This document shows positions 18,371-64,000 of a stretch of DNA of 64,000 nt, one piece after another. The stretch is from an uncultured Verrucomicrobiae bacterium (GTDB lineage Bacteria; Verrucomicrobiota; Verrucomicrobiia; Limisphaerales; UBA11358). Positions within the stretch are counted from its first letter, which is position 1. Each line of letters opens with the position of its first letter. Location: positions 119,147-183,146 of the forward strand of contig CAWDPX010000015.1 of the NCBI GenBank assembly GCA_963804345.1, read 5' to 3'. The notes under the pieces are model-generated. The model was not told where the DNA came from, made no database searches, and worked only from the letters and a program-made list of their open reading frames with translations. Made by a program: the position numbers and the translations under genes.

Positions 18371-18604
18371 TAACGTTTCCAGACATCCGGGTTCATCCAT
18401 CGGCGTTGCCATCTTCGCTTTGCTTACCGCCGGGCCACAAAACCGAACCCACGTCATGTCACACCGCCGGGATGGCTGCCACTACGGCAGGCAGAGCCGG
18501 ATGCGCCGCCACCGCAACGGCGCAAATTTTTTCCTTGAACTGTTTGCCACAACGGATGGAGTATCAGCGCGAAAATGGTTTTGCTGTGAACAGAAGGGCA
18601 TGTC

Positions 18605-19459: not shown

Positions 19460-19567
19460 CATGGTTAAAGCCGGATGGAAGACGATACCGAAGGACGGAC
19501 GCGAACTCCAGTTGTTTGGCTTAACATGAAGCCAACCAACCGCCTTCCGGTTCGACGCGGCGTCAGG

Positions 19568-20113
19568 TCAAGGGTGGTGTTTTAGCTTTTGAAACCGCTT
19601 TTTGATTTCATTCCACTCCACATTTACCCGCAGAGTCGCATTTAACAATCGCGGGAGCACGTCCAGAGCGGCTTTCAGTTCGTCGCTGTTTTCAAACTCG
19701 AACCGCATTTTCCTGCCGTCCCGCAGGGAGAAATTCCAGCGCCCCGCCTGTTTGCCGTGAAGCGCGAAAAAGGACGGCGGTTCAATCGCCGCCTCGTGAA
19801 TCTCGGGAATATAGATTTTGAAATTGTTTTTGTTTTCGCGGAGCAACTCTTCCGGGTCCACCTGCCCGGCGCGCTGGAGAAATTCCTCGGTTTTCTTTTT
19901 CGCCCGCCGTTTCATGGATTCCCGGATCAGATATCCGATGAGCCCGAAATGAATCGTGAGCGCCTGCGCGGTTGCGCTCAGACCCGCGATCTGGATGAAG
20001 TAGAGGTCGTTTCCCCGCGCATGAACACGATACACGCTGTCCGAGCGGGTGGAGACCCGTTTGGCGTTAAATGTCGCTGAGTTTTCCATAATTGTCCTGA
20101 GTTGACGCGTCAC
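19568..20113 (-). CDS. Hypothetical protein
   Basis: 181-aa ORF (possible start at ATG 20089). No motif recognised. Confidence 0.45.
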   Translation of the reverse strand: MTRQLRTIMENSATFNAKRVSTRSDSVYRVHARGNDLYFIQIAGLSATAQALTIHFGLIGYLIRESMKRRAKKKTEEFLQRAGQVDPEELLRENKNNFKIYIPEIHEAAIEPPSFFALHGKQAGRWNFSLRDGRKMRFEFENSDELKAALDVLPRLLNATLRVNVEWNEIKKRFQKLKHHP

Positions 20114-28576: not shown

Positions 28577-28778
28577 GTTGGAGTTCAGGCTTCAGCCTGT
28601 TCGGGCGAATCCGCGCATTGCTCCCGGAGCGCCGAGCACCGCCTCGGCAAGATTTGCTGGAAATCGCCTGTTCGTGCCGAGCCGGTGCTCGGCGCTCCGC
28701 TTTCCGTGGTGCGGCATGGGGGCAGTGTCAAGTTGCGCCCGCCTGTTCCACCTGACAAGCTAAAGCTTGAACTCCAAC
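28577..28778. repeat. Composite palindromic element (outer arms GTTGGAGTTCAGGCTTCAGCCTGT / ACAAGCTAAAGCTTGAACTCCAAC; inner arms GGAGCGCCGAGCACCG.. / ..CGGTGCTCGGCGCTCC)
   Basis: Outer arms are complementary at 21/24. The element ends 22 nt upstream of the pabC ATG. Confidence 0.6.
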
Positions 28779-41270: not shown

Positions 41271-43844
41271 TTACTCCCGCACCGTTGCCTTCAACTGCGC
41301 TTTGAACGCTTCCACGATTTTCGTGTGCGCGGCGTTGGCTTCGGCGTCGGTCAGCGTTTTGTCCGCGGCGCGATAGGTGAAGGCGTAGGCCAGGCTTTTT
41401 TGGCCCTCGGGAACGTTTTTGCCGCGGAACACGTCGAACAATTCCACCGCTTCCAGGTTCGCCGGTTTGGTCTGCTTCACCACCTGCAAAACGGCGTCGT
41501 GCGTCGTGGCTTCGGGCACAATCATCGCCACGTCCCGGCGGATGGCGGGAAACGCGGGCAATGGCTTGAATGACTTGGCCGGATTCCGCCGCGCCAGCAG
41601 CAAATCCAGATTCAATTCCGCCAGCAGCACGGCGTCGCGCAAATCATATTTCTTCGCCAGCGCGGGCAGCAATTGACCGAACTCGCCAACTTGATTTTTG
41701 CCCTGCAAAATGACGGCCGATTCGAGAAAGAGCGCGGTGCTTTCCGCCTGGCGCGCAAACGTCATTCCGCGCAAACCGAATTGCTCGAAAAATTCCTCCA
41801 ACACACCTTTCAAATCGCAGGCGTCAAATTTCGCGTCGCGTTCGCTGCCGCTCCAGAAGGGCAGGGCACGCTGGCCGGTGAGCGCGAGAGCTAGGCGGGG
41901 TTTTTCAAGGAAGAGGTGTGAGTCGGCATTTGGTCCTTCCTTTGTGCCGAACACCTGCCCGATTTCAAACAGCGCCACGTCGTAATTCTTCCGGCTCAAG
42001 TTATGTCGCAACGAATGAATCAATCCCGGCAACAAACTGGGACGCAGCACGTCCATGTCCGAACTCAACGGATTTGCCAGTGTAACCAATTCGGCATTCG
42101 GCATTCGGCATTCGGCATTCGCTATTAGCGTCTGCCCTTGCGCTTCGTTCAGGCCCAGCCCGCTCAAAATCCGGCGCGCTTCTGCCAGGACGTCGTGTGT
42201 CGCGTCGAATGCGTTCGTGCCTAGCGCGCCGCGCGGCGGAGTGGACGGAATTTTGTCCACGCCATGCAGCCGGGCGATTTCTTCGATCAAATCCACTTCA
42301 CGTTTCAAGTCCACGCGGAACGTGGGAATCCGAAACGTGACCGGTTCCGGCGCGGCGTTGGCGCCAACTGGCCGCGCCTTGTGACCGGCGGTTTTCAAAC
42401 CAAGCTGGCCGAGATAAAACTCAATTTCTTCAGGCCGAAGCTCAATGCCGAGCAGTTCGTTCACCTTGTGATGCCGCAGCGTGATTTGCTTCGGCTCGAC
42501 CGGTTTCGGGTAGGCGTCCACGACGCCTTCGGCGAGTTGGCCGCCGGCGGTTTCGAGAATCAATTGCGCGCACCGCGCGCCGGCCCAGTCGTTGATGTCA
42601 ATGTCCGCGCCGCGCTCGAAACGATAGCTGGCGTCGGTGCGCAGTCCCAGCGTCTTGCTCGTGCGGCGGATGTTCGTGGGCGAGAAATAGGCGCTCTCGA
42701 TGAGCACGTCCACGGTGTTGTCCTTGATCTCGGAATTCTGCCCGCCCATGACGCCGGCCAGCGCGATGCCTTTTTGTTCATCGGCGATGAGCAGATTGTC
42801 CGAAGTGAGCTTGTGTTTCTGGCCGTCGAGCGTGATGAACTCCTCGCCGGCCTTCGCGCGGCGGACGACGATGGTTGGCTTGCAGCCGCCGTCGTCAGAC
42901 GGCGCATTCTTTCCATCCGAAGTTTGCGCCGACTCACGTCGGCGGCTACGGGAAATAAGGTGATAATCAAACGCGTGCAGCGGCTGGCCGATTTCGAGCA
43001 TCACGTAATTCGTCACGTCCACGACGTTGTTGATGCTGCGGACGCCGACTTTTTCCAGGGTGGTTCGGAGCCAGTCCGGGCTGGGGCCAATCTTCACGCC
43101 TTTCACGACACGAGCGGTGTAACGCGGGCAAAGGTCTGGGTCATCGAGGCGGACGCTGACCAAATCCGCCGTTTTTTCGGAGGGGCGAGTTCCACGAGTC
43201 CCTAAATTTGCTTCGGAATCAGGGCGTCGCGGAGCTCCACCCTCCGAAACGTTTGGCACCTTCAACGCATTTCCCGTCACTGCCGCGATCTCGCGGGCGA
43301 TGCCGATGACGCTGTTCCAGTCCGACCGGTTGGGCGTGATTTCGAGATCGAACACCACGTCGCCGCCGGTGCGGCCGAGATATTCGGCGAACGGCTGGCC
43401 GATCTTGGCGTCCGCCGGCAGAATGAGCAGGCCGTCCACCTTGTCCGGCAGGCCGAGTTCCTGCGGCGAGCACATCATGCCGTGGCTGGTGATGCCGAAG
43501 ACTTTTCGTTCCTTGATGACGAACGGTTCCGTGTCGCCGGGCTTCAGCGGCAGGGCGAAGTTCGGCAGGATGAGCGGCACCTTGTCGCCGGGTTTGTGGT
43601 TTTGCGCGCCGCAAATGATGACGCGCTCGCCCTTGCCGTCGTTGACCTTGCAGACGGAGAGCTTGTCCGAGCCGGGCACGGGGTCGCGCGTAAGGATTTG
43701 GGCGACGACGATGCCGTCGAACTCGCCGCCGGTTTTATGGACGCCCTCGACTTCGAGGCCGAGCATGGTGAGCCGCTCCGCCAGTTGTTCGGGCGACCAG
43801 TCGAAATCAACGTATTGTTTGAGCCAGTTAAGGGTGAGTTTCAT
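41271..43844 (-). CDS. pheT: Phenylalanine--tRNA ligase beta subunit, with several short in-frame insertions
   Basis: MKLTLNWLKQYVDFDWSPEQLAERLTMLGLEVEG, tRNA-binding domain GSDKLSVCKVNDG, B3/4 and B5 regions, FDVFRGKNVPEGQKSLAY. Confidence 0.9.
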   Translation of the reverse strand: MKLTLNWLKQYVDFDWSPEQLAERLTMLGLEVEGVHKTGGEFDGIVVAQILTRDPVPGSDKLSVCKVNDGKGERVIICGAQNHKPGDKVPLILPNFALPLKPGDTEPFVIKERKVFGITSHGMMCSPQELGLPDKVDGLLILPADAKIGQPFAEYLGRTGGDVVFDLEITPNRSDWNSVIGIAREIAAVTGNALKVPNVSEGGAPRRPDSEANLGTRGTRPSEKTADLVSVRLDDPDLCPRYTARVVKGVKIGPSPDWLRTTLEKVGVRSINNVVDVTNYVMLEIGQPLHAFDYHLISRSRRRESAQTSDGKNAPSDDGGCKPTIVVRRAKAGEEFITLDGQKHKLTSDNLLIADEQKGIALAGVMGGQNSEIKDNTVDVLIESAYFSPTNIRRTSKTLGLRTDASYRFERGADIDINDWAGARCAQLILETAGGQLAEGVVDAYPKPVEPKQITLRHHKVNELLGIELRPEEIEFYLGQLGLKTAGHKARPVGANAAPEPVTFRIPTFRVDLKREVDLIEEIARLHGVDKIPSTPPRGALGTNAFDATHDVLAEARRILSGLGLNEAQGQTLIANAECRMPNAELVTLANPLSSDMDVLRPSLLPGLIHSLRHNLSRKNYDVALFEIGQVFGTKEGPNADSHLFLEKPRLALALTGQRALPFWSGSERDAKFDACDLKGVLEEFFEQFGLRGMTFARQAESTALFLESAVILQGKNQVGEFGQLLPALAKKYDLRDAVLLAELNLDLLLARRNPAKSFKPLPAFPAIRRDVAMIVPEATTHDAVLQVVKQTKPANLEAVELFDVFRGKNVPEGQKSLAYAFTYRAADKTLTDAEANAAHTKIVEAFKAQLKATVRE
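42090..42122. repeat. Tandem heptanucleotide repeat (TCGGCAT x4 plus a partial unit) inside pheT
   Basis: Direct reading. Translated on the minus strand as ANAECRMPNAEL. The same GAATGCC units recur at 61443-61460. Confidence 0.8.
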
Positions 43845-45487: not shown

Positions 45488-46546
45488 TTAAAATTGTTTC
45501 AAAAACCGCACGTCATTTTCGTAAAAGAGCCGGATGTCGTTGATGCCGTAACGGATCATGGCGATGCGCTCGATGCCGAAGCCGAACGCCCAGCCGGTCC
45601 AGATTTCGGGGTCGTAGCCGACGTTCTCGAACACCTGCGGATGCACCATGCCGCAGCCGGCGATTTCCAGCCAGTCCTTGCCCAGCTTCTTCACGAGCGC
45701 ATTGCTGAAATCAATCTCGAAGCTCGGCTCGGTGTAGCTGAAGTAGTGCGGACGGAAACGGATCTTCACATCCTTGCCCAGCAATTCCTTGAAAACGAAT
45801 TCGACCGTGCCCTTGAGGTCGCCCACGGTGACGCCCTTGTCCACGTAAAGCCCTTCGATCTGCTGGAAGGTTGGATTGTGCGTGGCGTCGGCGTTGTCGC
45901 GGCGATAAACGCGGCCGGGGACAATAATGCGCACGGGCGGCGGCTGCGATTTCATCACGCGGATTTGCACGGATGACGTATGCGTTCGGAGCAAAAGTGA
46001 TTGACGTCCGCCCTCGCCCCGGCCCTCTCCCCCGGGAGAGGGAGAATTATCCGCCGATCCACTTGCAAGGTAGAAAGTATCCTGGGTATCGCGTGCCGGA
46101 TGGTCGGCGGGGGTGTTGAGGGCGTCGAAACAATGATATTCGTCCTCGATCTCCGGGCCGTCGGCGACGGCGAAGCCGAGCTTGCGGAAGGCGCGGACGA
46201 TGTCCTCGGTGACCTGCGTGAGCGGATGAAGCTTGCCGAGCGCGCGGCGGCGTCCGGGCAGGGTGAAGTCGGTCGGCTCCTTGGGCAGGGCGGCCTTGAG
46301 TTCGAGTTCGGAGCGGCGTTCGGCGAGCGCGGCTTCGAGGGCGATTTTGGCGGCGTTGATGAGTTTGCCGGCGGCGGGCTTTTCCTCTTTCGAGAGCGTG
46401 CCGAGTTGTTTCATCAGCGCGGTGAACTTGCCGTTGGCGCCGAGCCAGGCGCCCTTGGTCTGTTCGAGCGCGGCGGGGTCGGGCGCCGCCTTGAGTTCGG
46501 CGAGCGCGGTTTGTTTCAATGGTTCAATTTCGTTTAGCAGAGACAT
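45488..46546 (-). CDS. pheS: Phenylalanine--tRNA ligase alpha subunit, with an in-frame repeat insertion
   Basis: HPLTQV, PADHPARDTQDTFY, LLRTHTSSVQIR, FRPHYFSYTEPS, GCGMVHPQVF, AFGFGIERIAMIRYGI. Confidence 0.9.
   Translation of the reverse strand: MSLLNEIEPLKQTALAELKAAPDPAALEQTKGAWLGANGKFTALMKQLGTLSKEEKPAAGKLINAAKIALEAALAERRSELELKAALPKEPTDFTLPGRRRALGKLHPLTQVTEDIVRAFRKLGFAVADGPEIEDEYHCFDALNTPADHPARDTQDTFYLASGSADNSPSPGGEGRGEGGRQSLLLRTHTSSVQIRVMKSQPPPVRIIVPGRVYRRDNADATHNPTFQQIEGLYVDKGVTVGDLKGTVEFVFKELLGKDVKIRFRPHYFSYTEPSFEIDFSNALVKKLGKDWLEIAGCGMVHPQVFENVGYDPEIWTGWAFGFGIERIAMIRYGINDIRLFYENDVRFLKQF
46005..46062. repeat. Single arm of the CCCTCGCCCCGGCCCTCTCCCCCGGGAGAGGGAGAA repeat family, in frame in pheS
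   Basis: Translated as ..NSPSPGGEGRGEGGRQ.. between the conserved DTFYL and LLRTHTS blocks. Confidence 0.7.
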
Positions 46547-47295: not shown

Positions 47296-47374
47296 AAATC
47301 TTAATTACAAAAGAGCGCAAACTATACGCGGCGACAGGCGCTGAGGCAAGCGCCATTTTTGAATTAATCAAGAG

Positions 47375-49117
47375 GGGCGGCGGACAAAATTCTTCATCAG
47401 GCGGACAGGGAGAGAGTGTCATTGCGTTTGGCGTGTTGATTGAGCCGGTGTTTCCAGAACGGGTCCCAGCGCCGACTGCTGTGGATGCAACGCAACGCCA
47501 GCACGTTTTCTGCACCGGGCAGGGACCAGAACATGCCTGATTGTTTGCAGCGCGCGCCGATGACCGTCTTGCAGCCAGCCTCCACGACGCCCGAACCGAT
47601 AAAGTAACCTGCGGCGCGAAAGGAGCCATACTGCATGCGCTGGATATTGCGCTCAAAATAACCCAATTCCTCCCCCACGACTTGCGCTTGCGGTTGACCG
47701 AGGCAAGCTTGGCGGGTTTCTTTAATCAGCGACTCGACCTTGTCTTTGAGCAATCGCCTGGCCCAACGTCGCTGCCGGGTTTTGTGGTCCGGATGGTTTT
47801 TGCCCAGCAGGGCGTCGAGTACTCGGCCCGCGTGTTCCAGCGCATGATAAAAGTCCACGACCTGCACACAGCCTTTGAAGCAGTCTTTGCCCATGTTCTC
47901 CAAACCGGTGGCGCCGTCGATCAAGAGCACGGTTTTTCCTGCTGTGGCCAAGCCTCGGCGCAAGGCTTCCTGGCGCAGAATGGGGCCAAACTGGTCAATG
48001 GATTGGAAGCTGGAAACATAGGTGGTGGATTCATGGTCCCGCACGGGATGGCCTTTTTCATCCGTCCGATGCTGCGTAAAAACACAGCCCAGATAAACCT
48101 GGCGGGTCTTGGCCGTGCCGTCGGGTTGTTTGCCCGCCCTTCCGGCCAACTCCTTGGGGCGCATGGGCACACCGGTGCCATCGGCGCTGACATACATAAT
48201 GGGCGCGTCGCACCGGCCGGGTTGGGCCTGGCGCTGCTGCCAAACTTGCGCGTCCTGGCCCACTCGTTGCACGACGCGCTGGATTTGCCGGGCCGACACC
48301 TGGATGGCACCGGTTTCGGCCAGATGCCGCTCCGCTTTTTGGTAGCCTGTCTCATCGGCGCCCTCCAAACAGATCAGCCGGGCCAAAGCGGGCGTGTAGC
48401 CAACCTCCAGACCCAGCGCCGCATCGGCTGGATAGTGCCCCTGTTTTTTGCCCTCATGGTAGTAGTAGTCGCGCTCCAGTTGGAAGGTGCCAAACAAACC
48501 GTCCACCCGCAGGCACTCCCGTCCTTTGCGCTGCTGGCCGGGTGCGGGCTGATAGGCGGCATCGACACGGTCGGCCGCTTGTTGGAGCAGCCATTGCACC
48601 AGCGCATTGGCGGGCTTGAAGATGGCGGTGCGCACCAGCACTTCCAACTGCTGCACCGCCAAGCCGTTGGGCGTTTGCCCGCCAAAGTGCGCCATCAACT
48701 GTTGGATTTCCTGCTCTTGGGCCAGGAGGAGTTGTGGCGTGGGGTCTTTTTTTTTGCGCCCGCCACTCGCTCGGCGCGGGTTTTTTCCACCATGAGTTGC
48801 ACGTATTGCGCCATCAGTTCCTGGACCTGACGGTAGCCATCGATGGCGGCCTTGAGGTCGGGCACCTGTTCCGGGGGCACGTAGCGGGAAACGTTGCGGC
48901 CATTTTCATAGCATTGGTGATTATAGTAGGGCCCTTGCGGCCCTTGGCGAAGCACACTGATGGTGCCGCGATCCAGACGCTGGATTTGGGCGATGTCGTT
49001 GAGGAGCGATTGCGGAGTGGATTTGGTATTCATGGCCGGAAGTATATGTGTATGCCATATACCAAGGCAATAAAAAAAAGGCTAAAAACTGATTTTGAAG
49101 AATTTTGTCCGCCGCCC
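47375..49117 (-). mobile_element. Complete ISKra4-family-like insertion sequence (1743 bp) with 22-bp perfect terminal inverted repeats and a 9-bp target-site duplication
   Basis: IRL GGGCGGCGGACAAAATTCTTCA (47375-47396) and IRR TGAAGAATTTTGTCCGCCGCCC (49096-49117). Direct repeat AATCAAGAG at 47366-47374 and 49118-49126. Confidence 0.85.
47397..49033 (-). CDS. IS transposase encoded as two overlapping ORFs (112 aa plus 433 aa) joined by a -1 frameshift at A_AAA_AAG
   Basis: OrfB ..YVSADGTGVPM.., ..LLIDGATGLEN.. and ..GSGVVEAGCKTVIGARCKQSGMFWSLPGAENVLALRC..RWD.FW match my recollection of ISKra4 transposases. The OrfA frame reads GCA AAA AAA AAG at 48757-48746; the -1 frame continues KKDPTPQLLLAQEQEIQQLMAHFGG. 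Confidence 0.75.
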
Positions 49118-49180
49118 AATCAAGAGTCAACACGCGATGGCAGGGCAAACCGGCCGGTTAGCCCGGATTTGGTGGTGTCA

Positions 49181-52987: not shown

Positions 52988-54652
52988 CTATTCCACATCC
53001 ACCAGGGTGAAACGAATTCGCTCGGTTATTTGAATGGGAACCGTTTGTCCTCGATTCATAGTTTCCATCGCTATGTTCTGATCGTAGGCGGCATCCACCA
53101 CCATCCCGAGCGCCGGATCGAACCAGGCATCGCCGGCAAATTTCCCTTTTATGTTTCGTCGGGGACTATTTTGAGCCGTGGCATCGGGTTTGGCTGAAAT
53201 GCTGCCCGCAACCCCGATGCGCATGCACTTGCGATCGTGATGTTGTTCCCAACTCTTGAAGGTGTACTCCATGTCGGTGGCCATGATGCCTACGGGACTG
53301 ACAAAATCCTTGGTTTTCCGCCAGCGATCGCCCGTCGCCACCGGCCGGTTGGGCATCATCTCCCCAAACGATGCATATTCTTTTAGAATGTCCCCGCTGA
53401 ACATTTGTTGGAATATCGCCCGGTCCTGCGGTTTTCCGATCGTTCCAACTTGTCGCATCAATTCCTCCAAGCCCTCCACTTTCTCCACCTGGCCATCCGC
53501 GTCGGTAATAAATTGGAAGCGGGTGCCGAGCTGCTTTCGCAACATGGCCGACACGGGAACGCCGGCATCCTGCGCCGTATCCTGTTTGGAATCGAAACTC
53601 GACACCTTGCGCTCTCCCAGGCTGACGTCCATTGTTTCGCCTGTAAATTCCAGATCCAATTGCCGGCCCCCGTTGTCGAGTTCCTTGCGGACGGACAGGG
53701 TATAATCCTGTGTCAGGTTCACCGACTGTTTGAACGACTGGGGCTGGCCGGACGACTTTGACTCCACGGTCTCAACCATCTCCGCCCGCATGGCGTAGGT
53801 CTTGCCAGCCTGCCACTGGATCTTCATTTCCGCCGGGTGATCGGACGGGGACTGGTGCGGTGTGAATTCGTTGACGGCAAGAGTTGCCGTTCCTGCCGCG
53901 AGCAGCACGCCCACGCCGGTAATGATTGCGGTTTTTGCTTTTGTCCATGCCATAAGTTTCAATGCTCCTTTGATGAGGGTTAAGGTTGAGCCGCTGGCCG
54001 CCGCGCCTTTGGTGATCGCGACCGCCGTTGCGGTTTTTGCAAGCAAAGCTGGCGCGGCTTGAACGGAGTTGGCGGAAATCGCCGCCGTCAGAACCGCCGC
54101 CGGAAGAACAACACCACGCTTCGTGAAGAACCGCCGCAGTTTTTCCACCGCGCGCAGGACACGCCTTTGCGCCGCCGCCTCGCTTACCCGTAACGCCGCC
54201 GCAACTTCGCAAACATTTTTGTCTTTGAAAAACCGCAGCATCACGGCGTCGCGATCTTTTTTGCCCAGCCGCGACATCGCTTCATCCAGCAAGGGCGCGA
54301 GTTGATTCCAGGCTGTAGCATCGGCGGGTTCCTGAAGGGTGGATTGCATATAGGCCTCCTGTTCGCGAAATTGACGGCGGCGTTCTCCGCGCAAGAAACT
54401 CAACGCCGTCAGCCGCGTCGTTTCATGCAGCCAGCCTTCCAGGACGGTGTCCGGGCGGAGGCCGGCGGCTTTGCGCGCAAGGATGACAAAGACCGCCTGC
54501 GTGATTTCCTCGGCATGGGCGGCAATCCCGACGTGACGGAACGCAATCGAATATACCAGATTGACGTGCCGCCGGACCAGTTCGGCAAAGGCTGCTTCCG
54601 AGCCTTGCCGGTCGTAATCCCGCAACAGTTCCATGTCGCTCACATCGGGCAT
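52988..54652 (-). CDS. ECF sigma factor fused to a TM segment and a roughly 300-aa unassigned extracytoplasmic domain
   Basis: MELLRDYDRQGSEAAFAELVRRHVNLVYSIAFR.., ITQAVFVIL.., DRDAVMLRFF... Anchor GSTLTLIKGALKLMAWTKAKTAIITG. Confidence 0.8.
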   Translation of the reverse strand: MPDVSDMELLRDYDRQGSEAAFAELVRRHVNLVYSIAFRHVGIAAHAEEITQAVFVILARKAAGLRPDTVLEGWLHETTRLTALSFLRGERRRQFREQEAYMQSTLQEPADATAWNQLAPLLDEAMSRLGKKDRDAVMLRFFKDKNVCEVAAALRVSEAAAQRRVLRAVEKLRRFFTKRGVVLPAAVLTAAISANSVQAAPALLAKTATAVAITKGAAASGSTLTLIKGALKLMAWTKAKTAIITGVGVLLAAGTATLAVNEFTPHQSPSDHPAEMKIQWQAGKTYAMRAEMVETVESKSSGQPQSFKQSVNLTQDYTLSVRKELDNGGRQLDLEFTGETMDVSLGERKVSSFDSKQDTAQDAGVPVSAMLRKQLGTRFQFITDADGQVEKVEGLEELMRQVGTIGKPQDRAIFQQMFSGDILKEYASFGEMMPNRPVATGDRWRKTKDFVSPVGIMATDMEYTFKSWEQHHDRKCMRIGVAGSISAKPDATAQNSPRRNIKGKFAGDAWFDPALGMVVDAAYDQNIAMETMNRGQTVPIQITERIRFTLVDVE

Positions 54653-54880: not shown

Positions 54881-56344
54881 TTATTTTACTTTCTCCACCA
54901 CCAGCATTGTGATCGGCTCGCGACCCGGCACAAGTCCGAGGCCAAGTTGTTCAAGTGCTTGGTTTACGCTATCCAATTTTTGATTTTCCATGTCGGTTTC
55001 CTTGCAGTTTAAAACAAAATCGAAATGATTGGTGAGACCCGTCTTATTGATAACAGGGATGTTTGCCAAAGCTTCGGTTTCACTGGCCAAGTCACCCAAT
55101 GGCCGGTCTTGAAATTCGAGTCGGATTCCCGAATCTCTCCACAGCATGTAATCATTGGGGCTTGGGCGTGTGCGTTGTTTCAAGCCTGGCGCATTTGGAG
55201 ATTTCACCGTAAGAATCCAAACATCCACCTCACGCGTTTCAACTTTGCCAATAACACCGAATTTTCGTTTTACCTCTCGCTGCAATGCTTCATAATTCCC
55301 GTTCGCCAAACTCGCGATGAAGTCGAAGCGACCTTCCGGCAGTTTAGTGGAAAGAATCGTCCTCGCACTTTGGAAGCCATAAGCTGCCGCTACAACATCT
55401 CGAGCTGTGACTCCCGTTCCCATCAGTTTAGCGCTTTCCCCATCGCCACTTTGACCTCCGGCAAAAGAGGTAAACTTGCTGGAAAGAATTCTGACTTCTG
55501 GCGGTTGCCGATCCAGCACGCTACGAGCAAAAATGCCTTCATTTACCTGCCAAGTTGTTGCTCCGGCGGCGATCAACACTCCTGCGCCAATCATGATTGC
55601 CGTTTTGGTTTTTATCCAGGTCATAATATTCAGCGTTCCTTTCACCAGGGTCATGGTTGAAACCGCAGCGATTGACCCTTTGGTAATCGCCACGGCAGTC
55701 ACAGATTTCGCCAGCGCCACCGGCGCGGCTTGAACGGAATTGGCGGAAATCGCTCCGGCGATGATGGTCGTGGTCGAACTCATGCCGCGCTTCGTGAAAA
55801 ATTTCCGCAGCTTTTCCAGCGCCCGGTTCACGCGCATCTTCGCCGCGTCTTCGCTCGCGCCCAGCGCCGCGCCTACTTCCTTGAAATTCCGGCCTTCAAA
55901 AAACCGCAGCACGAGGGCGTCATGATCCTTTTGACCGAGTTGCTCCAGCGCTCCGTCCAGCAAGGGAGCGATTTGAGCCCAGGTTTCCGCCTCCGCTTCG
56001 CTTCGGCGCGACAAGTCGTCTTGCAGTTGGTCAACCTGCGATTGCATGAATGCCTCCTGTTCGCGGCGTTGCCGCCGCCATTGAATCGTCAGCGCATTGG
56101 CGCTCGCGTAACGCGCCGTGCGGCAGAGCCACCCACTTAAAATGGTTTTCGGGCCGAGCGACCCCGCCTTGCGCGCCAGAATGATGAACACCGCCTGCGT
56201 GATTTCCTCGGCCAGCTGCGGGTCGCGCACCTGCCGTAGCGCCACGGAATAAACCAGATTGACGTGGCGCGACACGAGCGCGGCGAACGCCTCCTCGGAA
56301 TTATGCCGGGCATATTCCCGCAGCAGGGTCAGGTCGTCATTCAT
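54881..56344 (-). CDS. ECF sigma factor fused to a TM segment and a TIGR03435-like C-terminal domain
   Basis: LTLLREYARHNSEEAFAALVSRHVNLVYSVALRQV... Anchor STMTLVKGTLNIMTWIKTKTAIMIG. C-terminal ..IPVINKTGLTNHFDFVLNC..ALEQLGLGLVPGREPITMLVVEKVK. Confidence 0.8.
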   Translation of the reverse strand: MNDDLTLLREYARHNSEEAFAALVSRHVNLVYSVALRQVRDPQLAEEITQAVFIILARKAGSLGPKTILSGWLCRTARYASANALTIQWRRQRREQEAFMQSQVDQLQDDLSRRSEAEAETWAQIAPLLDGALEQLGQKDHDALVLRFFEGRNFKEVGAALGASEDAAKMRVNRALEKLRKFFTKRGMSSTTTIIAGAISANSVQAAPVALAKSVTAVAITKGSIAAVSTMTLVKGTLNIMTWIKTKTAIMIGAGVLIAAGATTWQVNEGIFARSVLDRQPPEVRILSSKFTSFAGGQSGDGESAKLMGTGVTARDVVAAAYGFQSARTILSTKLPEGRFDFIASLANGNYEALQREVKRKFGVIGKVETREVDVWILTVKSPNAPGLKQRTRPSPNDYMLWRDSGIRLEFQDRPLGDLASETEALANIPVINKTGLTNHFDFVLNCKETDMENQKLDSVNQALEQLGLGLVPGREPITMLVVEKVK

Positions 56345-56446
56345 GGTTTCATTTATACATCTACGCCACCGCGAAAAGGTAACAGATTATTTTTGCGGCA
56401 GCGGGCGAGGTTTGGAACAAGGGCGCATCGTCATTCGCGCCCTTTT

Positions 56447-56605
56447 CATTAGCACCCGGCTTCAGCCGGGTGTTGAGAGACCAGTAAAATAAAAACCGTT
56501 TCAACAGTTTTTGCCCCATTCCCATCACAAGGCAAAAAGTGAAAGCCGTTGAAACGGCTTTCCGATTTCCGTCGCCCAACACCGGGCTGAAGCCCGGTGC
56601 TAATG
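56447..56605. repeat. Head-to-head pair of a roughly 70-nt repeat (CATTAGCACCNGGCTTCAGCCNGGTGTTG..AAACCGTTTCAAC..TTTTGCC) forming a 159-nt imperfect palindrome upstream of gltB
   Basis: Left arm 56447-56515. The reverse complement of 56530-56605 aligns to it by eye. Confidence 0.6.
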
Positions 56606-56678
56606 AGAATTTCCGCGCTCCTTTCGAAAGTGAAATGCGCCTCTTCTGAAAACATTTAATTGCGAAACAGCATAATTT

Positions 56679-59600
56679 ATGTCAAGAATAAGAGAACAAA
56701 TGGCGACGAATCGCCAGGAAATGACCAGAAGAACAACGCAGCGACACAACAAACACGGCACGGGTGCAGGCAGAGCGCCGTCGAAACAAGGACTTTACGA
56801 TCCACGCTTCGAGCATGAAGCGTGCGGTGTAGGCTTTGTGGTCAACATCAAGGGCAAAAAGTCGCACCCCATCGTCCAGCAGGCGCTCCAGGTGTTGCGC
56901 AACCTCCAGCATCGCGGCGCGTGCGGTTCCGAGGCGAACACCGGCGACGGCGCGGGCATTCTGATGCAGGTGCCCCACACGTTTTTGGAGCAGGCCTGCC
57001 GCGAAATGAAGATCGACACTGCCCGGCCCGGGCGAATACGGCGTCGGCATGGTCTTTCTCCCGCCGCATCCCACGGAACGCTACAAGTGCGAGGTGCTGT
57101 TTGAGGATATCGTCGCCACGGAAGGCCTGCGCCTGCTCGGCTGGCGGACCGTGCCCACCGAACACAGTTCGCTGGGTGAAACCGCCATCGCGTCCGAACC
57201 GGTCGTGCGCCAAGTGTTCATCGCGCGTCCCGACGGTCTGGCCGACGACCTCGCGTTCGAACGCAAGCTCTACGTCATCCGCAAACTGGCGAAGCGGGGC
57301 ATCCGCACCGCGGGACTCAGTGGCGGTGACAAATTTTACGTCTGCAGCCTGTCCGCCAAAACGATGATCTACAAGGGCATGTTGATGCCCGACCAGGTGG
57401 AACATTATTATCCGGACCTCGCGGACCCGTCGCTGGAAAGCGCGCTGTGCCTCGTGCATTCGCGGTTCAGCACGAACACGTTTCCCACCTGGGAACGCGC
57501 GCATCCGTACCGTTACGTCGCGCACAATGGCGAAATCAACACCCTGCGCGGCAATATCAACTGGATGCACGCCCGCCAGTCGCTGTTCGCGTCCGATTTG
57601 TTCGGCGACGATCTCAAGAAGCTGCTGCCGGTCATCAACGAGGACGGCAGCGACTCGGCCATGTTCGACAACGCGCTGGAATTTCTCGCGCTCTCCGGAC
57701 GATCCCTGCCGCACGCCGTGATGATGATGATTCCCGAGCCGTGGGAACGGCACCAGAGCATGGACGCGGAAAAACGGGCGTTTTACGAATATCATTCCTG
57801 CCTGCAGGAACCGTGGGACGGCCCCGCCTCCATCGCGTTCACCGACGGCGTGCGCATCGGCGCGACCCTGGACCGCAACGGACTGCGGCCTTCGCGCTAC
57901 TACGTAACGAAGGACGACCGGGTGATCATGGCCAGCGAAGTCGGCGTGCTCGACCTGCCGCCGGAAATGATCGTCCAGAAAGGCCGCCTGCAACCCGGCC
58001 GGATGTTCCTGATTGACACCGAACTGGGCCGTATCGTGGCGGACGAGGAACTGAAGGCCAAAGTCGCCCGGGAGCATCCGTACCAGGTCTGGCTCGATCA
58101 GAACCATGTGCTGCTGGAAAATTTGCCCGAGCCGCCGCACGTTCATGAGCCGGACCACCAGACGGTGTTCCAGCGCCAGCAGGCGTTCGGCTACACGTTC
58201 GAGGACCTGCGGTTCATCCTGGGTCCCATGGCCAGCGACGGCGTGCAGCCGCTCGGCTCGATGGGCACGGACACGCCGCTGGCGGTGCTCTCGAACAAGC
58301 CGCAATTGCTCTACAATTATTTCAAACAGCTTTTCGCGCAGGTCACCAACCCGCCGATTGATCCCATCCGCGAGGAAATCATCACCTCCACGGAAACGAT
58401 GCTCGGCTCGGAGGGCAATCTGCTCCAGCCCACGCCCGAAAGCTGCCGCATGATCAAGCTGGAGCATCCCATCCTCACCAACGAGGACCTCGAAAAGCTC
58501 CGGCACGTGGACCGCAACGGTTTCAAGGCGGTCACCCTGCCGATTTTGTTTCAAGGTGGTAGTGGCGCGGGCGTCTCGCCCGCGCGAAGCGAAGAAAAGA
58601 TTCTCACGGGCAGGATGCCCGTGCCACTAACAATCTCGAAGGCGCGCTGGAAAAACTGTTCGCCGCCACCGACAAGGCCATTGCCGGAGGCTCGAACATC
58701 ATCATTCTTTCTGACCGCGGCATCAGCGCCGAGAACGCACCGATCCCCGCGATGCTCGCCGTGGCGGGCCTGCATCATCATTTGGTCCGGCAAGGCACCC
58801 GCACGCGCGTCGGGCTGGTGCTCGAATCGGGCGAGCCGCGCGAGGTTCATCATTTTGCGCTGCTCATCGGCTACGGTTGCAGCGCCATCAATCCCTACCT
58901 CGCATATGACTCGCTCGATGACCTGATCCACGAAGGCCTGCTGCCCGGCCTCGACCACAAGACCGCCGTTAAGAAATACATCAAGGCGGTCGTCAAGGGC
59001 GTCGTGAAAACGATGGCCAAGATGGGCATCTCAACGGTGCAAAGTTATCGCGGCGCGCAGATTTTTGAGGCCATCGGACTGAACCACAACGTCATTGACC
59101 GGTATTTTACCTGGACGGTGTCGCGCGTCGAGGGCGTCGGCCTGGACGTGTTGACTGAAGAGGCGTTGGCCCGCCACCGCCAGGCGTTTTCCGACCGCCC
59201 GGTCAACAATGTGGCGCTGGACACCGGCGGCCAGTATCAATGGCGCAGCGACGGCGAGTTTCACCTGTTCAACCCGCAGTCCATTCACAAACTGCAGCTC
59301 GCCTGCCGCCTCGGCAGCTACGAGCGGTTCAAGGAATATTCCGCGCTGATCAACAACCAGGCGCAAAACCTCTGCACGCTGCGCGGCCTGCTCGAATTCA
59401 ACTGGGCGGAAAAATCCGTGCCTATCGAGGAAGTCGAACCGGTCGAGGAAATTGTGAAACGGTTCAAGACCGGCGCGATGAGCTACGGCTCGATCAGCCA
59501 GGAAACGCACGAGGCGCTCGCCATTGCCATGAACCGCCTCGGCGGCAAAAGCAACACCGGCGAAGGCGGCGAAGACCCGGAACGCTACATCTGGACGAAT

Positions 59601-61421
59601 GAGCGCGGTGACTCGAAGAACAGCGCCATCAAGCAGGTCGCCTCCGGCCGCTTCGGCGTGACGAGCAATTATCTCATCAACGCGAAGGAGCTTCAGATTA
59701 AGATGGCCCAGGGCGCGAAGCCGGGCGAAGGCGGCGAACTGCCGGGCCGCAAGGTGTATCCGTGGATCGCCAAAACGCGGCTCACCACGCCGGGCGTCGG
59801 CTTGATTTCGCCGCCGCCGCACCATGACATTTATTCCATCGAGGATCTTGCCCAGTTGATCCACGACCTGAAGAACGCGAACCGCAACGCGCGGGTGAGC
59901 GTGAAGCTGGTCGCGGAAGTCGGCGTGGGCACCGTCGCCGCCGGCGTCGCCAAGGCGCACGCCGACGTGGTGCTCATCAGCGGTTACGACGGCGGCACGG
60001 GCGCGTCTCCCCTCTCTTCGATCAAGCATTCGGGCATCCCATGGGAACTCGGCCTGGCCGAGACGCACCAGACGCTCGTGCTCAACAATCTCCGCAGCCG
60101 GATTTACGTCGAGGCCGACGGCCAGCTCAAGACGGGCCGCGACGTGGCCATCGCCGCGCTGCTCGGGGCGGAGGAATTTGGTTTTGCCACCGCGCCGCTC
60201 GTCACGCTGGGTTGCCTGATGATGCGCGTGTGCCATTTGAACACCTGCCCGGTGGGCGTGGCCACCCAGGACCCGCAGCTCCGCAAATTCTTCTCGGGCA
60301 GCCCGGACCACGTGGTCAATTTCATGCGGTTCATCGCCGCGGAATTGCGCGAGATCATGGCCAAGCTCGGCTTCCGGACGATAAACGAAATGATTGGCCG
60401 CACGGACAAGCTGGCCCCGCGAAAGGCGATTGAGCATTGGAAGGCGAAGGGCCTCGACTTCACGAGCATTTTGCAGCGGCCGGATGTCTGGCCGGAGGTC
60501 GTCCGCTACCGGCAGATTGACCAGGACCACGGCATCAAAAACTCGCTCGACGTGATGCGGCTGCTGGACATCTGCGAACCGGCCATTGAACGCGGCGAGC
60601 GCGTCCACGCCGACCTGCCCATCCGCAACGTCAACCGCGTCGTCGGCACCATCACCGGCAGCGAAGTGACGAAGAAGTGGGGCCCGAACGGCCTGCCGGA
60701 GGACACAATTAATCTCAAATTCACGGGCAGCGCGGGCCAGAGCTTTGGCGCGTTCATTCCCAAAGGCATGACGCTCGAACTCGAAGGCGACGCGAACGAT
60801 TATCTGGGCAAGGGCCTCAGCGGTGGCAAAATCATCGTCTATCCCTCGAAAGGTTCAACCTTTGCCGCCGGGGAAAACATCATCATTGGCAACGTGGCAT
60901 TCTACGGAGCCACGAGCGGCGAGGCGTTCATTTGCGGCATGGCGGGCGAACGTTTCGGCGTGCGCAACAGCGGCGTGAACGCGGTCGTCGAGGCCATCGG
61001 CGATCACGGTTGCGAATACATGACCGGCGGGCGCGTGATAGTGCTGGGCCGGACCGGGCGCAATTTCGCCGCGGGCATGAGCGGCGGCATCGCCTACGTG
61101 CTCGACGAAGCCGGCGATTTCCCGGCGCATTGCAACCAGGAAATGGTCAGCCTCGAAAAATTGAAGGACGCCGACGAAATCGAGATGATCTGGAAATTGA
61201 TCCAGCGCCACCAGGCGTACACGAAGAGCGAACGCGCCGCGAAAGCGCTGGCGGACTGGCGGCAGCTCGTGCCTAAGTTCGTCAAGGTGATGCCGAAGGA
61301 CTACCAGCGCGTGCTCGAATCCATGAAGAAGGTGAAGGAACTGGGCCTGACCGGCGACGAAGCCGTCATGGCCGCGTTTGAGGAAAACGTCCGCGACGTC
61401 GCGCGCGTCGGAGGAGGATGA
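56679..61421 (+). pseudogene. gltB: Glutamate synthase large subunit; the reading frame is interrupted twice (one extra nt near 57018; 68 extra nt at 58560-58629)
   Basis: Three ORFs (56679..57104, 57049..58926, 58752..61421) carry consecutive GltB sequence: HEACGVGFV (Ntn Cys), [15 protein letters not shown] after the shift, [17 protein letters not shown], ..[50 protein letters not shown]/Fe-S region [21 protein letters not shown]-terminal GXGXG beta-helix. Confidence 0.85.
58560..58629. repeat. Small palindromic MITE-like element (TIR GTGGCRCGGGC / GCCCGTGCCAC, flanked by TA) inside gltB, out of frame
   Basis: TA-GTGGCGCGGGCGTCTCGCCCGCGCGAAGCGAAGAAAAGATTCTCACGGGCAGGATGCCCGTGCCAC-TA. Deleting 68 nt restores ..[19 protein letters not shown]... 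Confidence 0.7.
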
Positions 61422-61612
61422 CGCAGCAAAAGCCCGAAATCCGAATGCCGAATGCCGAAAGAAATCCGAAATCCGAATGTCGAATTCCAAGCACCATCAA
61501 TTGACGCTTGCTGTTTTCGGATTTCGAGCTTCGGGCTTCTTTCGTCATTTGTCCTTTGTCATTCGGATTTTGCAATCCGGGCGGCAATGTTAAATACTGA
61601 TTTCTAAATAGC

Positions 61613-63160
61613 ATGGGCAAACCCACAGGATTCATCGAGTATTTGCGCGAGCTGCCGGCGGACCGGCCGGCGGCGGGACGCATCGCGGACTGGAAGGAAT
61701 TTCACCTGCACCTGCCGGAAGCCGGCCTGCGCAAGCAGGGCGCGCGCTGCATGGACTGCGGCACGCCCTTCTGCCACACCGGCACGCTCCTCAGCGGCAT
61801 GGCCAGCGGCTGCCCTATCCACAATCTCATCCCGGAATGGAACGACCTCATCTATCGCGGCCTGTGGAAGGAAGCGCTTGAACGGCTGCACAAGACGAAC
61901 AATTTCCCGGAATTCACCGGTCGCGTCTGCCCGGCGCCGTGCGAAGGCTCGTGCGTGCTCGGCATCAACGCCCCGCCCGTCACCATCAAAAGCATCGAGT
62001 GCGCCATCATTGACCGCGGCTGGGACGAAGGCTGGGTCACCGCCGAACCGCCGAAACAGCGCACCGGCAAAAAGGTGGCCGTCGTCGGCTCCGGCCCGGC
62101 GGGCCTGTGCGCCGCCGCGCAACTGAACAGGGCCGGCCACACCGTCACCGTTTTCGAGCGCGCCGACCGCCCCGGCGGGCTGCTCATGTACGGCATCCCG
62201 AACATGAAGCTCGACAAGGAACTGGTGGTCCTGCGCCGCATCAAACAACTTGAAGCCGAAGGCATCCGGTTCGTTTGCAACACCGAAGTGGCACGGGCGT
62301 CCCGCCCGTCTGAAGAAAAACCAGCAACAACTCACGGGCAAGATGCCCGTGCCACTACTATTTACCCGGCGGAAAAACTGCTTCAGGAATTCGACGCCGT
62401 CATTCTTGCCACGGGCGCCACCAAGCCGCGCGATCTGCCGATCGAAGGCCGCCAATTCAAGGGCGTTCACTTCGCAATGGAATTCCTCACCGCGAACACG
62501 AAGAGTGTTCTCGACGGAAAAAAGAACGGCAATTTCATTTCCGCCGCCGGCAAGGACGTCGTCGTCATCGGCGGCGGCGACACCGGCACTGACTGCGTCG
62601 GCACCTCAATGCGTCATGGCTGTGCTAGTTTGGTGCAGGTGGAGATTTTGCCCCGGCCGCCGGAAGAGCGCGCGGCTGACAATCCGTGGCCCGAATGGCC
62701 GAAGGTCTATCGCATGGATTACGGCCAGGAGGAAGCCGCCGCGAAATTCGGCGCCGACCCGCGCATTTATCTCATCACCGCGACGAAGTTTGAAGGCGAT
62801 GCCAACGGCCAGGTGAAAGCCGTCCACACCGTGCAGGTGAAATGGGAGAAAAACGACAAGGGCCAGTTCATTCCGAAGAACGTGCCCGGCACGGAAAAGG
62901 TTTTGCCCGCGCAACTGGTGCTGCTGGCGATGGGCTTTCTCGGACCGGAACAGCCGCTGCTCGACGCGCTCAAGCTCGAACGTGACCCGCGCACAAACGT
63001 GAAGGCTGAATTCGAGAAATACTCGACTAATCTCAATGGCGTCTTCGCCTGCGGCGACTGCCGTCGCGGCCAGAGCCTGGTGGTATGGGCGTTCAACGAA
63101 GGCCGGGGTGCCGCGAGGGAGTGCGACCGCTATTTGATGGGCCACACCGATCTGCCGTAG
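61613..63160 (+). CDS. gltD: Glutamate synthase small subunit (NADPH), with an in-frame copy of the same palindromic element
   Basis: [78 protein letters not shown]. Confidence 0.9.
62288..62355. repeat. Small palindromic MITE-like element inside gltD, in frame
   Basis: GTGGCACGGGCGTCCCGCCCGTCTGAAGAAAAACCAGCAACAACTCACGGGCAAGATGCCCGTGCCAC, translated ..[24 protein letters not shown].. between the conserved NTEV and ..[11 protein letters not shown] blocks. Confidence 0.7.
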
Positions 63161-63465
63161 CCAGCTTAAATCGTCCCCGTTCTCGTCCGCGTCCTCAAAT
63201 TAGATGTTCAGCGTTGGATGTTGAATGTTTTCCATCGCGTGAGGCTGAAGGCCCCGTAAAGTGACGGGCCACCACGGGGCGGAACGCCTTTTACGCGGCC
63301 TTTCTTATCCGCAATTCCACCCCTCGCCGGGCGCAATCCACCCCTCAAATCACGCAATGTGTCCCTTATTCATCACTTTTCCGCCCGTTTCGGTTAAATA
63401 TCACTCTGATGAATTGGTGGGTCGGTTACCCGAGGCGAAATTTAAAAACGAAATCGGAGAACATT

Positions 63466-64000
63466 ATGAAAAAGTCACGCATGTTGTTTGTAGTCGGCAC
63501 CCTGCTGGCGGCTGGCGGCCTAGCCCTCTCAGCGCGGGCGCAGAACGACGTTTATGCCGTTGAGTTCAACACCGGCGACAACGGTTTCGGCGTCATCAAC
63601 CTGATGAACGGCACCTTCACTCAAATTTCCGATCTGGGCCCGACCCTTTACAACGACATCGCCTACGCCCCGGACGGCACCTTGTATGGCCTGGCCAACA
63701 ATGGCGCGTCCCTGGTGACGTTTGACCGCGCGACTGGCGACGTCACGCCGGTCGCCTCGCTGGGCGGCTCGGGCATTGAATCCATCGCTTTCAATCCGAA
63801 CAACGGCGCGTTGTTCGGCGCCTCCGAGAGCGGCCTTTACACCATTGATCCGGCCACCGGCCAGGCATCGTATATTGGTGATTTTGGCAGCCCTTACGGC
63901 TGCAACCTCTGGCAGAACATCCGGTTTGACTCCGATGGCAACCTCTACTTGAGCAATACCAGCGGGAACACCGATATTTACCGGGTCAACACCGACACCG
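63466..64000 (+). CDS. Secreted hypothetical repeat protein (N-terminal part; continues beyond the window)
   Basis: ATG 63466 with GGAGA 6 nt upstream. Signal peptide MKKSRMLFVVGTLLAAGGLALSARA. Gly/Asn/Asp-rich, beta-propeller-like sequence. Confidence 0.6.
   Translation, partial: MKKSRMLFVVGTLLAAGGLALSARAQNDVYAVEFNTGDNGFGVINLMNGTFTQISDLGPTLYNDIAYAPDGTLYGLANNGASLVTFDRATGDVTPVASLGGSGIESIAFNPNNGALFGASESGLYTIDPATGQASYIGDFGSPYGCNLWQNIRFDSDGNLYLSNTSGNTDIYRVNTDT

Follow-up and report, generated by a model that had tools for sequence, protein, structure and literature searches.

REP dimers inside both glutamate synthase genes of an uncultured member of the Verrucomicrobiota

Main finding

Both glutamate synthase genes of an uncultured Verrucomicrobiae bacterium carry a palindromic insert within their coding sequence in the window analysed here, the whole stretch of 64,000 nucleotides. 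The two inserts are dimers of GT(A/G)G-tagged REP units, in which inverted, GC-rich, GTGG-headed hairpins are separated by a variable spacer in a REPIN-like arrangement, and the presence of such dimers in flexible loops of both subunits is ordinary for this element family. The copy in gltD is old, common to relatives and translated, and the copy in gltB is a strain-level variant in an eight-residue loop that hosts other repeat families in other strains. The frame break at the gltB copy is probably a one-base consensus error of a long-read metagenome assembly and not the mark of a dead gene.

Anatomy of the two copies

The genes and the parts of their inserts are as follows.

56721..61421, plus strand: gltB, glutamate synthase large subunit, read in three frames
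58560..58561, no strand assigned: left-hand TA bordering the gltB copy, with a counterpart TA at 58628-58629; a duplicated target or the final dinucleotide of the palindrome
58562..58627, no strand assigned: REP dimer (REPIN-like) within the gltB coding sequence, 66 nt, GTGGCGCGGGCGTCTCGCCCGCGCGAAGCGAAGAAAAGATTCTCACGGGCAGGATGCCCGTGCCAC
58562..58586, plus strand: left REP unit of the gltB copy, with a GTGG tag, stem GCGCGGGC / GCCCGCGC and loop GTCTC
58587..58604, plus strand: spacer of the gltB copy, including an A4 run at 58595-58598
58605..58627, minus strand: right REP unit of the gltB copy, CACGGGCAGGATGCCCGTGCCAC, its GTGG tag readable on the minus strand
61613..63160, plus strand: gltD, glutamate synthase small subunit, 515 aa, intact
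62288..62355, no strand assigned: REP dimer within the gltD coding sequence, 68 nt, in frame and translated
62288..62310, plus strand: left REP unit of the gltD copy, GTGGCACGGGCGTCCCGCCCGTC, with six-frame peptides identical to the Opitutus terrae GTAG-19 listing
62333..62355, minus strand: right REP unit of the gltD copy, CACGGGCAAGATGCCCGTGCCAC

An earlier note on this DNA had described the same element of about 68 nt in both genes, bounded by 11-nt terminal inverted repeats. Two copies with common ends are indeed present, but they measure 66 and 68 nt, and their left stems, loops and spacers are not the same; likewise, the inverted ends are perfect in gltD, whereas the left 11-mer of the gltB copy has one mismatch against GTGGCACGGGC. 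The gltB copy is bordered by TA on either side, and the gltD copy by AA on the left and TA on the right. The heterodimers have loops GTCTC/AGGAT and GTCCC/AAGAT, with part of the spacer conserved. The left-unit stem of the gltB copy is the CGCGGGC variant, which is common in Acidobacteriota and Tepidisphaeraceae among the matches listed in the genome scan.

Within the window, the dimer occurs only twice, in gltB and gltD, and the 11-mer with at most one mismatch occurs nine times against 2.5 expected, a count reached in none of 100 shuffles. Compared with shuffled sequences, the RNA of the two copies folds with free energies of -47.9 and -42.6 kcal/mol (z = -7.0 and -8.9), and the DNA gives z = -5.2 and -7.5; the gltB copy can form either one long hairpin or two separate hairpins. 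Both copies match copies in other genomes with E = 1e-11 to 1e-13. An Rfam scan of positions 56000-64000 at E<=1 returned no relevant family.

Relation to known palindromic repeats

REPs of the GTAG superfamily are imperfect palindromes of 20-40 bp with a GC-rich stem of 5-13 bp and a short loop. The units described here are 23-25 nt long, with stems of 6-8 bp and loops of 3-5 nt, and the tag expected at one end of a unit (GTAG or GTRG) is present as GTGG at the head of all four. Each pair of inverted units surrounds a spacer and is able to make one hairpin, which is the REPIN layout. Furthermore, the six frames of AGTGGCACGGGCGTCCCGCCCGTGA yield the same peptides, TGGTPVP among them, as the table of intragenic O. 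terrae GTAG-19 repeats (Di Nocera, De Gregorio and Rocco 2013, BMC Genomics 14:522; PMC3733652), for which GTGVPPVDSGSASDDHGRDARAT in uvrA is an example of a REP/dimer peptide (Additional file 3 of that paper). Judged from these six-frame peptides, the unit belongs to the GTAG-19 REP family.

The same paper reports the GTGG tag variant and head/tail dimers for O. terrae, which has the most intragenic GTAG REPs; dimers or groups of 20-30 aa make up more than half of the intragenic inserts, dimers sit in frame within many genes, and single units are found in genes as well (PMC3733652). The likeness to our copies thus extends over the unit peptides, the GTGG tag, the GC hairpin, the formation of dimers, the verrucomicrobial host and the frequent in-frame residence in genes of known proteins, with 20-30 residues added. 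In contrast, the host here is not O. terrae but an uncultured verrucomicrobial bacterium of soil or peat, known from metagenomes only, a TA-flanked subfamily exists, and the gene list of that paper includes neither gltB nor gltD (PMC3733652).

Two further systems invite comparison. With the REPINs (Bertels and Rainey 2011, PLoS Genet 7:e1002132), our copies share the inverted REP pair around a spacer, the folding into one hairpin and the many copies dispersed among genomes; however, Pseudomonas REPINs are extragenic and these copies are intragenic, and the family here spans several phyla, unlike REPIN-RAYT systems, for which mainly vertical inheritance is described. The Rickettsia palindromic elements (RPE; Ogata et al. 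2000, as cited in PMC3733652) resemble our copies as palindromes that lie in frame in conserved genes and are tolerated as extra peptide, and this kind of residence in conserved ORFs is seen in the gltD copy and in copies from other genes. Nevertheless, the RPE host is an obligate intracellular alphaproteobacterium, RPE-4 and RPE-6 are classed with CGTC-tagged repeats, and RPE-1 is a longer palindromic insertion (PMC3733652). The GTGG-tagged unit works like an RPE but, going only by the published description of RPEs, is not expected to be one.

Dispersal across genomes

In the genome scan, the same dimer architecture was found in at least 119 DNA stretches from Verrucomicrobiota, Planctomycetota, Acidobacteriota and other genomes, with several of these loci deriving from the same MAGs. 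Among the matches listed, a stop-free frame of at least 60 codons was found on both sides of 46 of the 120 copies, and the element length showed no intrinsic multiple-of-three constraint. In-frame copies confirmed by Pfam lie in an exonuclease VII, an NAD-dependent DNA ligase, a Pyr_redox_2 enzyme, a topoisomerase, an MFS transporter and a radical SAM enzyme. The earlier note had taken the segments for copies of a repeat and had named conserved, lineage-specific protein insertions as the finding that would speak against this. Its reading is borne out by the wide dispersal of the unit, by the absence of the gltB copy from relatives with about 92% identity and by the occurrence of other families at the same sites.

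The gltD copy

The gltD segment is translated in frame, as previously proposed, although 68 nt is not itself a multiple of three: 24 residues stand in place of three native ones, and the product has 515 aa against 494 aa in the empty alleles, a gain of 21 aa. In an alignment, the insert falls opposite a gap in Bacillus subtilis GltD (PDB 7MFM). The copy is present with two substitutions in relatives L120-L123, which are about 92% identical at the DNA level, and unchanged in the near-identical sister assembly from the same population (L125). An exact look-up found no record of the GltD of the window. An AlphaFold model of GltD built from an alignment reached a mean pLDDT of only 41 and was discarded as useless for judging the exposure of the loop.

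The gltB copy and the broken reading frame

The gltB gene runs in frame 0 from 56721 to 57015, in frame 1 from 57017 to the element and again in frame 0 past it, whereas its orthologues are intact single ORFs of 1546-1599 aa. The earlier proposal that the gltB copy breaks the frame and that removal of 68 nt restores it was confirmed: across the element, the ORF at 57049-58926 gives way to the ORF at 58752-61421, and deletion of 68 nt leaves one open frame through the site. Two further anomalies lie upstream.

57016, plus strand: extra A relative to the sister assembly (GATCG[A]CACTG), a second frameshift that cuts off ~98 initial codons from the remainder of gltB
56750..56767, plus strand: compensated one-base indel pair in gltB, +C at 56750 and -T at 56767

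The frameshift at 57016 had been missed in the earlier note. The compensated pair garbles six N-terminal codons of GltB, which read KHGTGAG instead of an NTARVSG-like sequence. One added base anywhere in 58563-58630 would bring the whole insert into frame, and two single-base repairs give an ORF of 1566 aa without stops. At 58551, what looked like an additional T compared with the sister assembly was set aside as an artefact of the alignment edge (TTT CAA GGT versus TTC AAG GCG).

The relatives L120-L122, about 92% identical in DNA, lack the gltB copy and carry no element at this place. The same loop holds a different element in L125 and in L126, that of L125 being palindromic and in frame; L125 is identical to the window over many kilobases yet carries this other element. 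Metagenome scans with junction patterns found the gltB insertion of the window in no other assembly, and protein searches with queries of 450 aa and 145 aa across the repaired insert returned only fragments without it; since these searches appear to favour hits of about query length, the missing insertion is weak evidence. Separately, Logan contigs from the short-read runs SRR28061837 and SRR27973230 are 100% identical to positions 18105-19959 of the window.

Whether gltB is dead, tolerates the element or contains a one-base error had been left open. We infer that an error is the best account, because of the other single-base anomalies (56750, 56767 and 57016), the signs of purifying selection on the gene and the one-base errors of the sister assembly. 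Outside the loop, over ~1540 residues, only two amino-acid changes unique to the window fall at otherwise invariant positions, the same number as in L125, and 20 nucleotide substitutions are specific to the window against 24 specific to L125; these counts indicate purifying selection on gltB. One-base errors in L125 have removed the invariant PGGLL from GltD and cut short an ORF of 554 aa, and the differences between the window and L125 come in patches of mixed mismatches and indels. That the assemblies are long-read ones is suggested by contig names of the form contig_NNNNN, by a contig of 343,727 bp and by the many fragmented gltB products encoded on long ENA contigs. The frame break and the 57016 shift would then be single-base consensus errors in the long-read assembly of a mixed population, and the real gltB would be intact, with an insert of 23 residues.

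The main alternative is that gltB is a real pseudogene, in which an out-of-frame dimer (66 nt plus TA, 68 nt in all) inactivated the gene at the strain level and single-base indels followed. In its favour, the sequence as it stands shows three frame anomalies, every one of them in gltB, and the insertion is private to the assembly of the window. Additionally, a random insertion breaks the frame two-thirds of the time, and the lack of a multiple-of-three length constraint makes an out-of-frame insertion a priori likelier for any single event. Over the 17 kb that can be compared with L125, the frame anomalies of the window are confined to gltB, and this clustering is as compatible with a real pseudogene as with a consensus that is faulty at this locus. 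Nevertheless, the two unique amino-acid changes match the number in the intact gene of L125, the nucleotide changes specific to the window do not exceed those specific to L125, and three to four neutral indels without a matching non-synonymous load would be unexpected. Every indel is a single base, gltD directly downstream is intact, and one-base defects of the same sort affect invariant residues in the sister assembly. A pseudogene is therefore considered rather unlikely, and a consensus error remains the preferred reading.

Mobility and the flanking TA

Bacterial MITEs with a TA duplication, such as the Correia/NEMIS elements of Neisseria, are short, non-coding and bounded by terminal inverted repeats. 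The earlier note had suggested a MITE-like insertion with a TA target duplication. A classical MITE of this sort would be a deletion derivative of an IS630/Tc1-type DDE transposon that duplicates its TA target. The resemblance lies in the short length, the 11-nt terminal inverted repeats and the TA on both sides of some copies, namely the gltB copy and 12 of the 120 genomic copies listed, against about 0.5 by chance; all but one of the 12 are in Verrucomicrobiota or unclassified MAGs. However, the termini are the stems of two GTGG-tagged hairpins, following the grammar of REPs and matching the published GTAG-19 family, and single units also occur in O. terrae genes. TA is inconsistent: it is lacking to the left of the gltD copy and at most copies outside the Verrucomicrobiota. 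As TA is its own reverse complement, it cannot be distinguished from an extension of the palindrome (TAGTGGCAC...GTGCCACTA) and may just lengthen the inverted repeat. No parent IS is known, and neither the window nor the fetched loci showed a related transposase or an IS with such ends. The MITE proposal is thus not supported in the form given, a classical MITE is highly improbable, and TA is no more than a putative target duplication. A reconstruction of the duplication from filled and empty alleles was rejected, given that the native loop is remodelled at both sites.

As REP dimers, the elements would be mobilised in the form of single-stranded hairpin DNA by a REP-associated tyrosine (HUH/Y1) transposase whose gene lies elsewhere in the genome, and their persistence in essential genes would need a surface loop that tolerates 20-30 extra residues together with a length that keeps the frame. 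A tblastn search with six published RAYT/TIRYT sequences, covering the window and the fetched loci (~1 Mb), found no RAYT in the window; the sole Y1-like match in the fetched loci, at L065, is flanked by a different repeat family. The link to a transposase therefore rests on published work for other REPs.

An improbable bypass of the frame break

It is scarcely credible that the frame break is real but bypassed, by a -1 ribosomal slip or by loss of the element from the RNA or the DNA, to give full-length GltB: the required shift is exactly -1, A AAG (in GAA GAA AAG, 58591-58599) is a slip candidate at which Lys-tRNA can re-pair from AAG to AAA, and the 8-bp GC hairpin of the right-hand unit begins 5 nt past it, but only this tetranucleotide is present in place of an X XXY YYZ heptamer, the candidate is not conserved because the insertion is private, the 57016 frameshift (GATCGACACTG) lies in no slippery sequence and would leave the protein divided all the same, and nothing suggests excision, the gltD copy being plainly translated in relatives. 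The features of programmed -1 frameshifting, a slippery heptamer with downstream structure and conservation, are thus not found together at gltB.

Loops as insertion sites and their meaning

At a single GltD site, at least six different palindromic repeat families were found among close relatives, in which no inserts were seen elsewhere in GltD, and the one eight-residue loop of GltB holds at least five. Each of the two loops is a hot spot for insertion by several repeat families. That they are preferred or self-renewing landing sites, beyond mere tolerance, is a doubtful extension of this observation; site-directed or mutually replacing REP-type elements could recognise a GTGG-like sequence or the resident hairpin. 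If insertion were directed or replacing in this way, the loops would form a cassette-like, fast-evolving surface segment in essential enzymes.

The copies in gltB and gltD leave the current picture of REP elements unchanged, and both subunits of a central nitrogen-assimilation enzyme join the list of REP-decorated proteins. For annotation, intragenic REP dimers in Verrucomicrobiota and neighbouring phyla add segments of 20-30 residues that should not be mistaken for domains or, in long-read MAGs, for pseudogene scars. With one site, many families and strain-level turnover, these loops offer a clean data set on site choice versus selective filtering.

Two copies of one palindromic element

As the earlier note had claimed, the same palindromic element lies in both glutamate synthase genes; no third copy was found within the 64-kb window, which is part of a 343,727-bp MAG contig from a member of the Verrucomicrobiota.

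58562-58627, copy in gltB: 66 nt, TA on each side, left 11-mer with one mismatch
62288-62355, copy in gltD: 68 nt, perfect 11-nt inverted ends, AA on the left, TA on the right

The 11-nt terminal inverted repeats described in that note are accordingly exact in gltD alone, and the double TA flank is confined to gltB. Both copies share the layout GTGGC-[ACGGGC loop GCCCGT]-spacer-[ACGGGC loop GCCCGT]-GCCAC and are predicted to fold, as one long hairpin or two hairpins, far more stably than shuffled sequence (RNA, -47.9 and -42.6 kcal/mol, z = -7.0 and -8.9; DNA, z = -5.2 to -7.5). The claim about reading frames was also borne out: gltD stays open through its copy, whereas gltB switches frame across its own and is repaired by a 68-nt deletion. 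In the leader or promoter region of gltB, some 110 nt ahead of its start, another palindromic family forms a 39-nt inverted repeat pair (56443-56481 / 56571-56609, 87% complementary) bearing GCACCCGGCTTCAGCCGGGTG hairpins.

A dispersed REP family

Each half of the element follows the grammar of a REP unit, with a GTGG tag in front of a GC hairpin. Di Nocera et al. 2013 (PMC3733652) divided REPs into GTAG- and CGTC-tagged superfamilies and reported that O. terrae is strongly enriched in GTAG repeats, with a GTGG tag variant, that intragenic GTAG REPs peak in this species, and that more than half of intragenic inserts are dimers or groups encoding 20-30 residues. Their Additional file 3 tabulates O. 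terrae 'GTAG-19' peptides, including ..SRAGRPCH, HGRDARAT and TGGTPVP, and dimers, including GTGVPPVDSGSASDDHGRDARAT in uvrA. Because the six reading frames of the window unit give exactly these peptides, the element is, judged by its translations, a dimer of that family, which it further resembles in tag variant, dimeric form and residence in genes. It resembles the REPINs of Bertels and Rainey, and no Rfam model covers it.

The element is widely dispersed: in a scan of one genome per species, the pattern GTGGCRCGGGC-N30-60-GCCCGYGCCAC matched at least 119 stretches of DNA. Hosts among the matches listed include Verrucomicrobiota, Planctomycetota (Tepidisphaeraceae, Phycisphaerae) and Acidobacteriota, and in nearly all of these matches the two hairpins are arranged as in the window copies, GTCCC/GGGAC, GTCTC/GAGAC and ATCTT/AAGAT being examples of their loops. 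The suggested TA target duplication fared less well, since TA stood on both sides of only 12 of the 120 genomic copies among the matches listed, all but one from Verrucomicrobiota or unclassified MAGs, and the outer bases were variable. TA is self-complementary, so that the same sequence would result from a duplicated 2-bp target or from a palindrome extended to TAGTGGCAC..GTGCCACTA; moreover, the loops of the empty alleles at both sites differ from the filled ones, and neither insertion junction can therefore be reconstructed.

An in-frame position inside genes is normal for this dimer family. Among the matches listed, 46 of 120 genomic dimers lay in a stop-free frame reaching at least 60 codons on both sides, against 70% of random segments, indicating a family depleted from genes yet far from excluded. 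Ten spanning ORFs were extracted, and in the six submitted to Pfam, intact domains surrounded the copy (exonuclease VII large subunit, NAD-dependent DNA ligase, Pyr_redox_2 flavoenzyme, bacterial topoisomerase, MFS transporter and radical SAM enzyme). A same-family copy at 3092-3144 of locus L050 is also in frame, within another Pyr_redox_2 flavoenzyme; it follows a beta-strand of the NAD-binding domain, and its place in the topology appears to resemble that of the GltD site.

Two loops used repeatedly

Comparison with relatives, another proposed check, separated the histories of the two copies. The gltD copy recurs, with two substitutions, in four relatives of about 92% DNA identity (L120-L123), and replaces 3 loop residues of a 494-aa baseline protein with 24, an insert with no counterpart in B. 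subtilis GltD (PDB 7MFM) when the two are aligned. The gltB element is missing from L120-L122 (FQAADGAKGLEGAL; intact ORF, 1546 aa). The sister assembly L125 (ENA ERZ25039529 contig_30269) matches the window at 100% identity over 18105-19959 and also, for many kb, between 47 and 64 kb; its gltB loop (equivalent to 58557-58635) carries in frame a different 100-nt palindromic element, GGAGCGCGGCTTG...CAACTCGCGCTCC, giving a 1577-aa product (GSAACPKPQRMESNESSKISNSQSQSDALRVETTRAP). L126, with GltD about 90% identical, has the same loop element as L125. Six differences from L125 fall within 25 nt right of the gltB site and almost none beyond, a pattern that looks like exchange of the loop allele by recombination. 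A 1.76-kb segment (47368-49126), which includes a DUF6788 gene and a transposase-like gene of the UPF0236 family, occurs once in the window and as a tandem duplication in L125.

Among the 120 closest GltD cluster representatives, about 90 were parsable at the site (equivalent to 62285-62365), and 25 carried an insert there; none of the parsed proteins had a comparable insert elsewhere. Relatives at least 81% identical in the alignment of GltD homologues hold at least six palindromic repeat families at this site.

ARASRP..DARAT
AQASRL..DACAT
RAGSPLPAA..GVTRPT, with GTAG-tagged ends
GFQP..CPT, including a triple tandem
two or more further families

One allele (P0045, locus L129) has three tandem units. 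The GltB loop, 8 residues (xAxDGAKG) across phyla, is likewise occupied in some relatives, by inserts from five or more families. Between families, the insertion points in the GltD loop lie 9-12 nt apart, which argues against one exact target nucleotide. A similar case is recB of two Xanthomonas species, with different REPs at about the same site (Di Nocera et al., PMC3733652). The simplest account of the shared sites is a tolerant loop together with high REP activity; less probably, elements insert preferentially beside a hairpin already present or a GTGG-like sequence, or displace copies already in place.

The gltB frame break

The frame change is present in the sequence, and we consider it likely to be a consensus error in a region of two coexisting haplotypes. 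Comparison with L125 and other relatives reveals a second frameshift in gltB, where an extra A at 57016 (GATCG[A]CACTG) moves the first ~98 codons into another frame (ORF 56679-57104); near the 5' end of the gene, +C at 56750 and -T at 56767 compensate each other but garble six codons. The element's frame is restorable by one base added anywhere in 58563-58630; with such a base in the spacer and A57016 removed, a 1566-aa ORF without stops results. L125 has one-base defects of its own, namely an indel pair (equivalent to 62170/62181) destroying the invariant PGGLL of GltD and an indel (equivalent to 53654) truncating an ORF of 554 aa in the window; these defects directly document how often indel errors occur in such assemblies. 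Differences between the two are patches of mixed mismatches and indels inside long identical stretches. That these are long-read assemblies is suggested by contig_NNNNN-type names, by very long contigs and by the many gltB products broken into frame fragments on long ENA contigs. In long-read consensus sequences, errors concentrate at methylated motifs; position 57016 is in GATC and the gltB spacer includes GATTC (GANTC), a lead rather than evidence.

Several frame defects in one gene (at the element, 57016 and 56750/56767) would also befit a real, very recent pseudogene, a reading we regard as unlikely, given that gltB is otherwise free of decay: only 2 window-unique amino-acid changes fall at positions invariant in five relatives, as many as in the intact L125 gene, and window-specific substitutions number 20 against 24 for L125. 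A -1 ribosomal slip on A AAG, 5 nt upstream of the right hairpin, would yield the right frame, but the site is unconserved, has no heptamer and would not rescue the shift at 57016.

Mobilisation and neighbouring repeats

No Y1/RAYT gene was found in the window, and only one of the fetched loci (~1 Mb) has one.

L065 2872-3225, minus strand: RAYT/TIRYT-like Y1 transposase gene, Verrucomicrobiae MAG

The repeat units on either side of it belong to another family (CCTGGGAGCGCTGGCGTCCCGCCGGCG...), and 2.5 kb away lies a GTGGCACGGGC dimer that is in frame in a topoisomerase gene. Since the window holds no such gene and this one sits beside another family, we infer RAYT mobilisation of the element from published work on other GTAG REPs (PMC3733652).

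The window is rich in REP-like elements, and its other dispersed palindrome families include TTCTCCCTCTCCCGGGGGAGAGGG... and TTTCGGAGGGGCGAGCTCCGCGAG...CTCCGCCCTCCGAAA.

22015-22057 / 46004-46046: dispersed palindromic repeat
16886-16960 / 43175-43249: dispersed palindromic repeat
28577-28778: dispersed palindromic repeat
8208-8236 / 8704-8732: dispersed palindromic repeat

Heptamer arrays, (CCGAATG)n / (TTCGGCA)n, occur at 61434-61459 and 42090-42115, one of them in the gltB-gltD intergenic spacer. Four minus-strand paralogous genes (23155-24372, 27033-28517, 52988-54652, 54881-56344) share DNA stretches 60-76% identical (repeat families D1-D6); the two looked up are sigma-70-type factors with a DUF3738 domain.

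The element is thus of a known kind in a known kind of place, and gltB with gltD is a new gene pair for it. The frame-breaking copy in an essential gene, the feature that had made the element look special, is probably an artefact of assembly. The part deserving follow-up is the recurrence of so many repeat families in these two loops.
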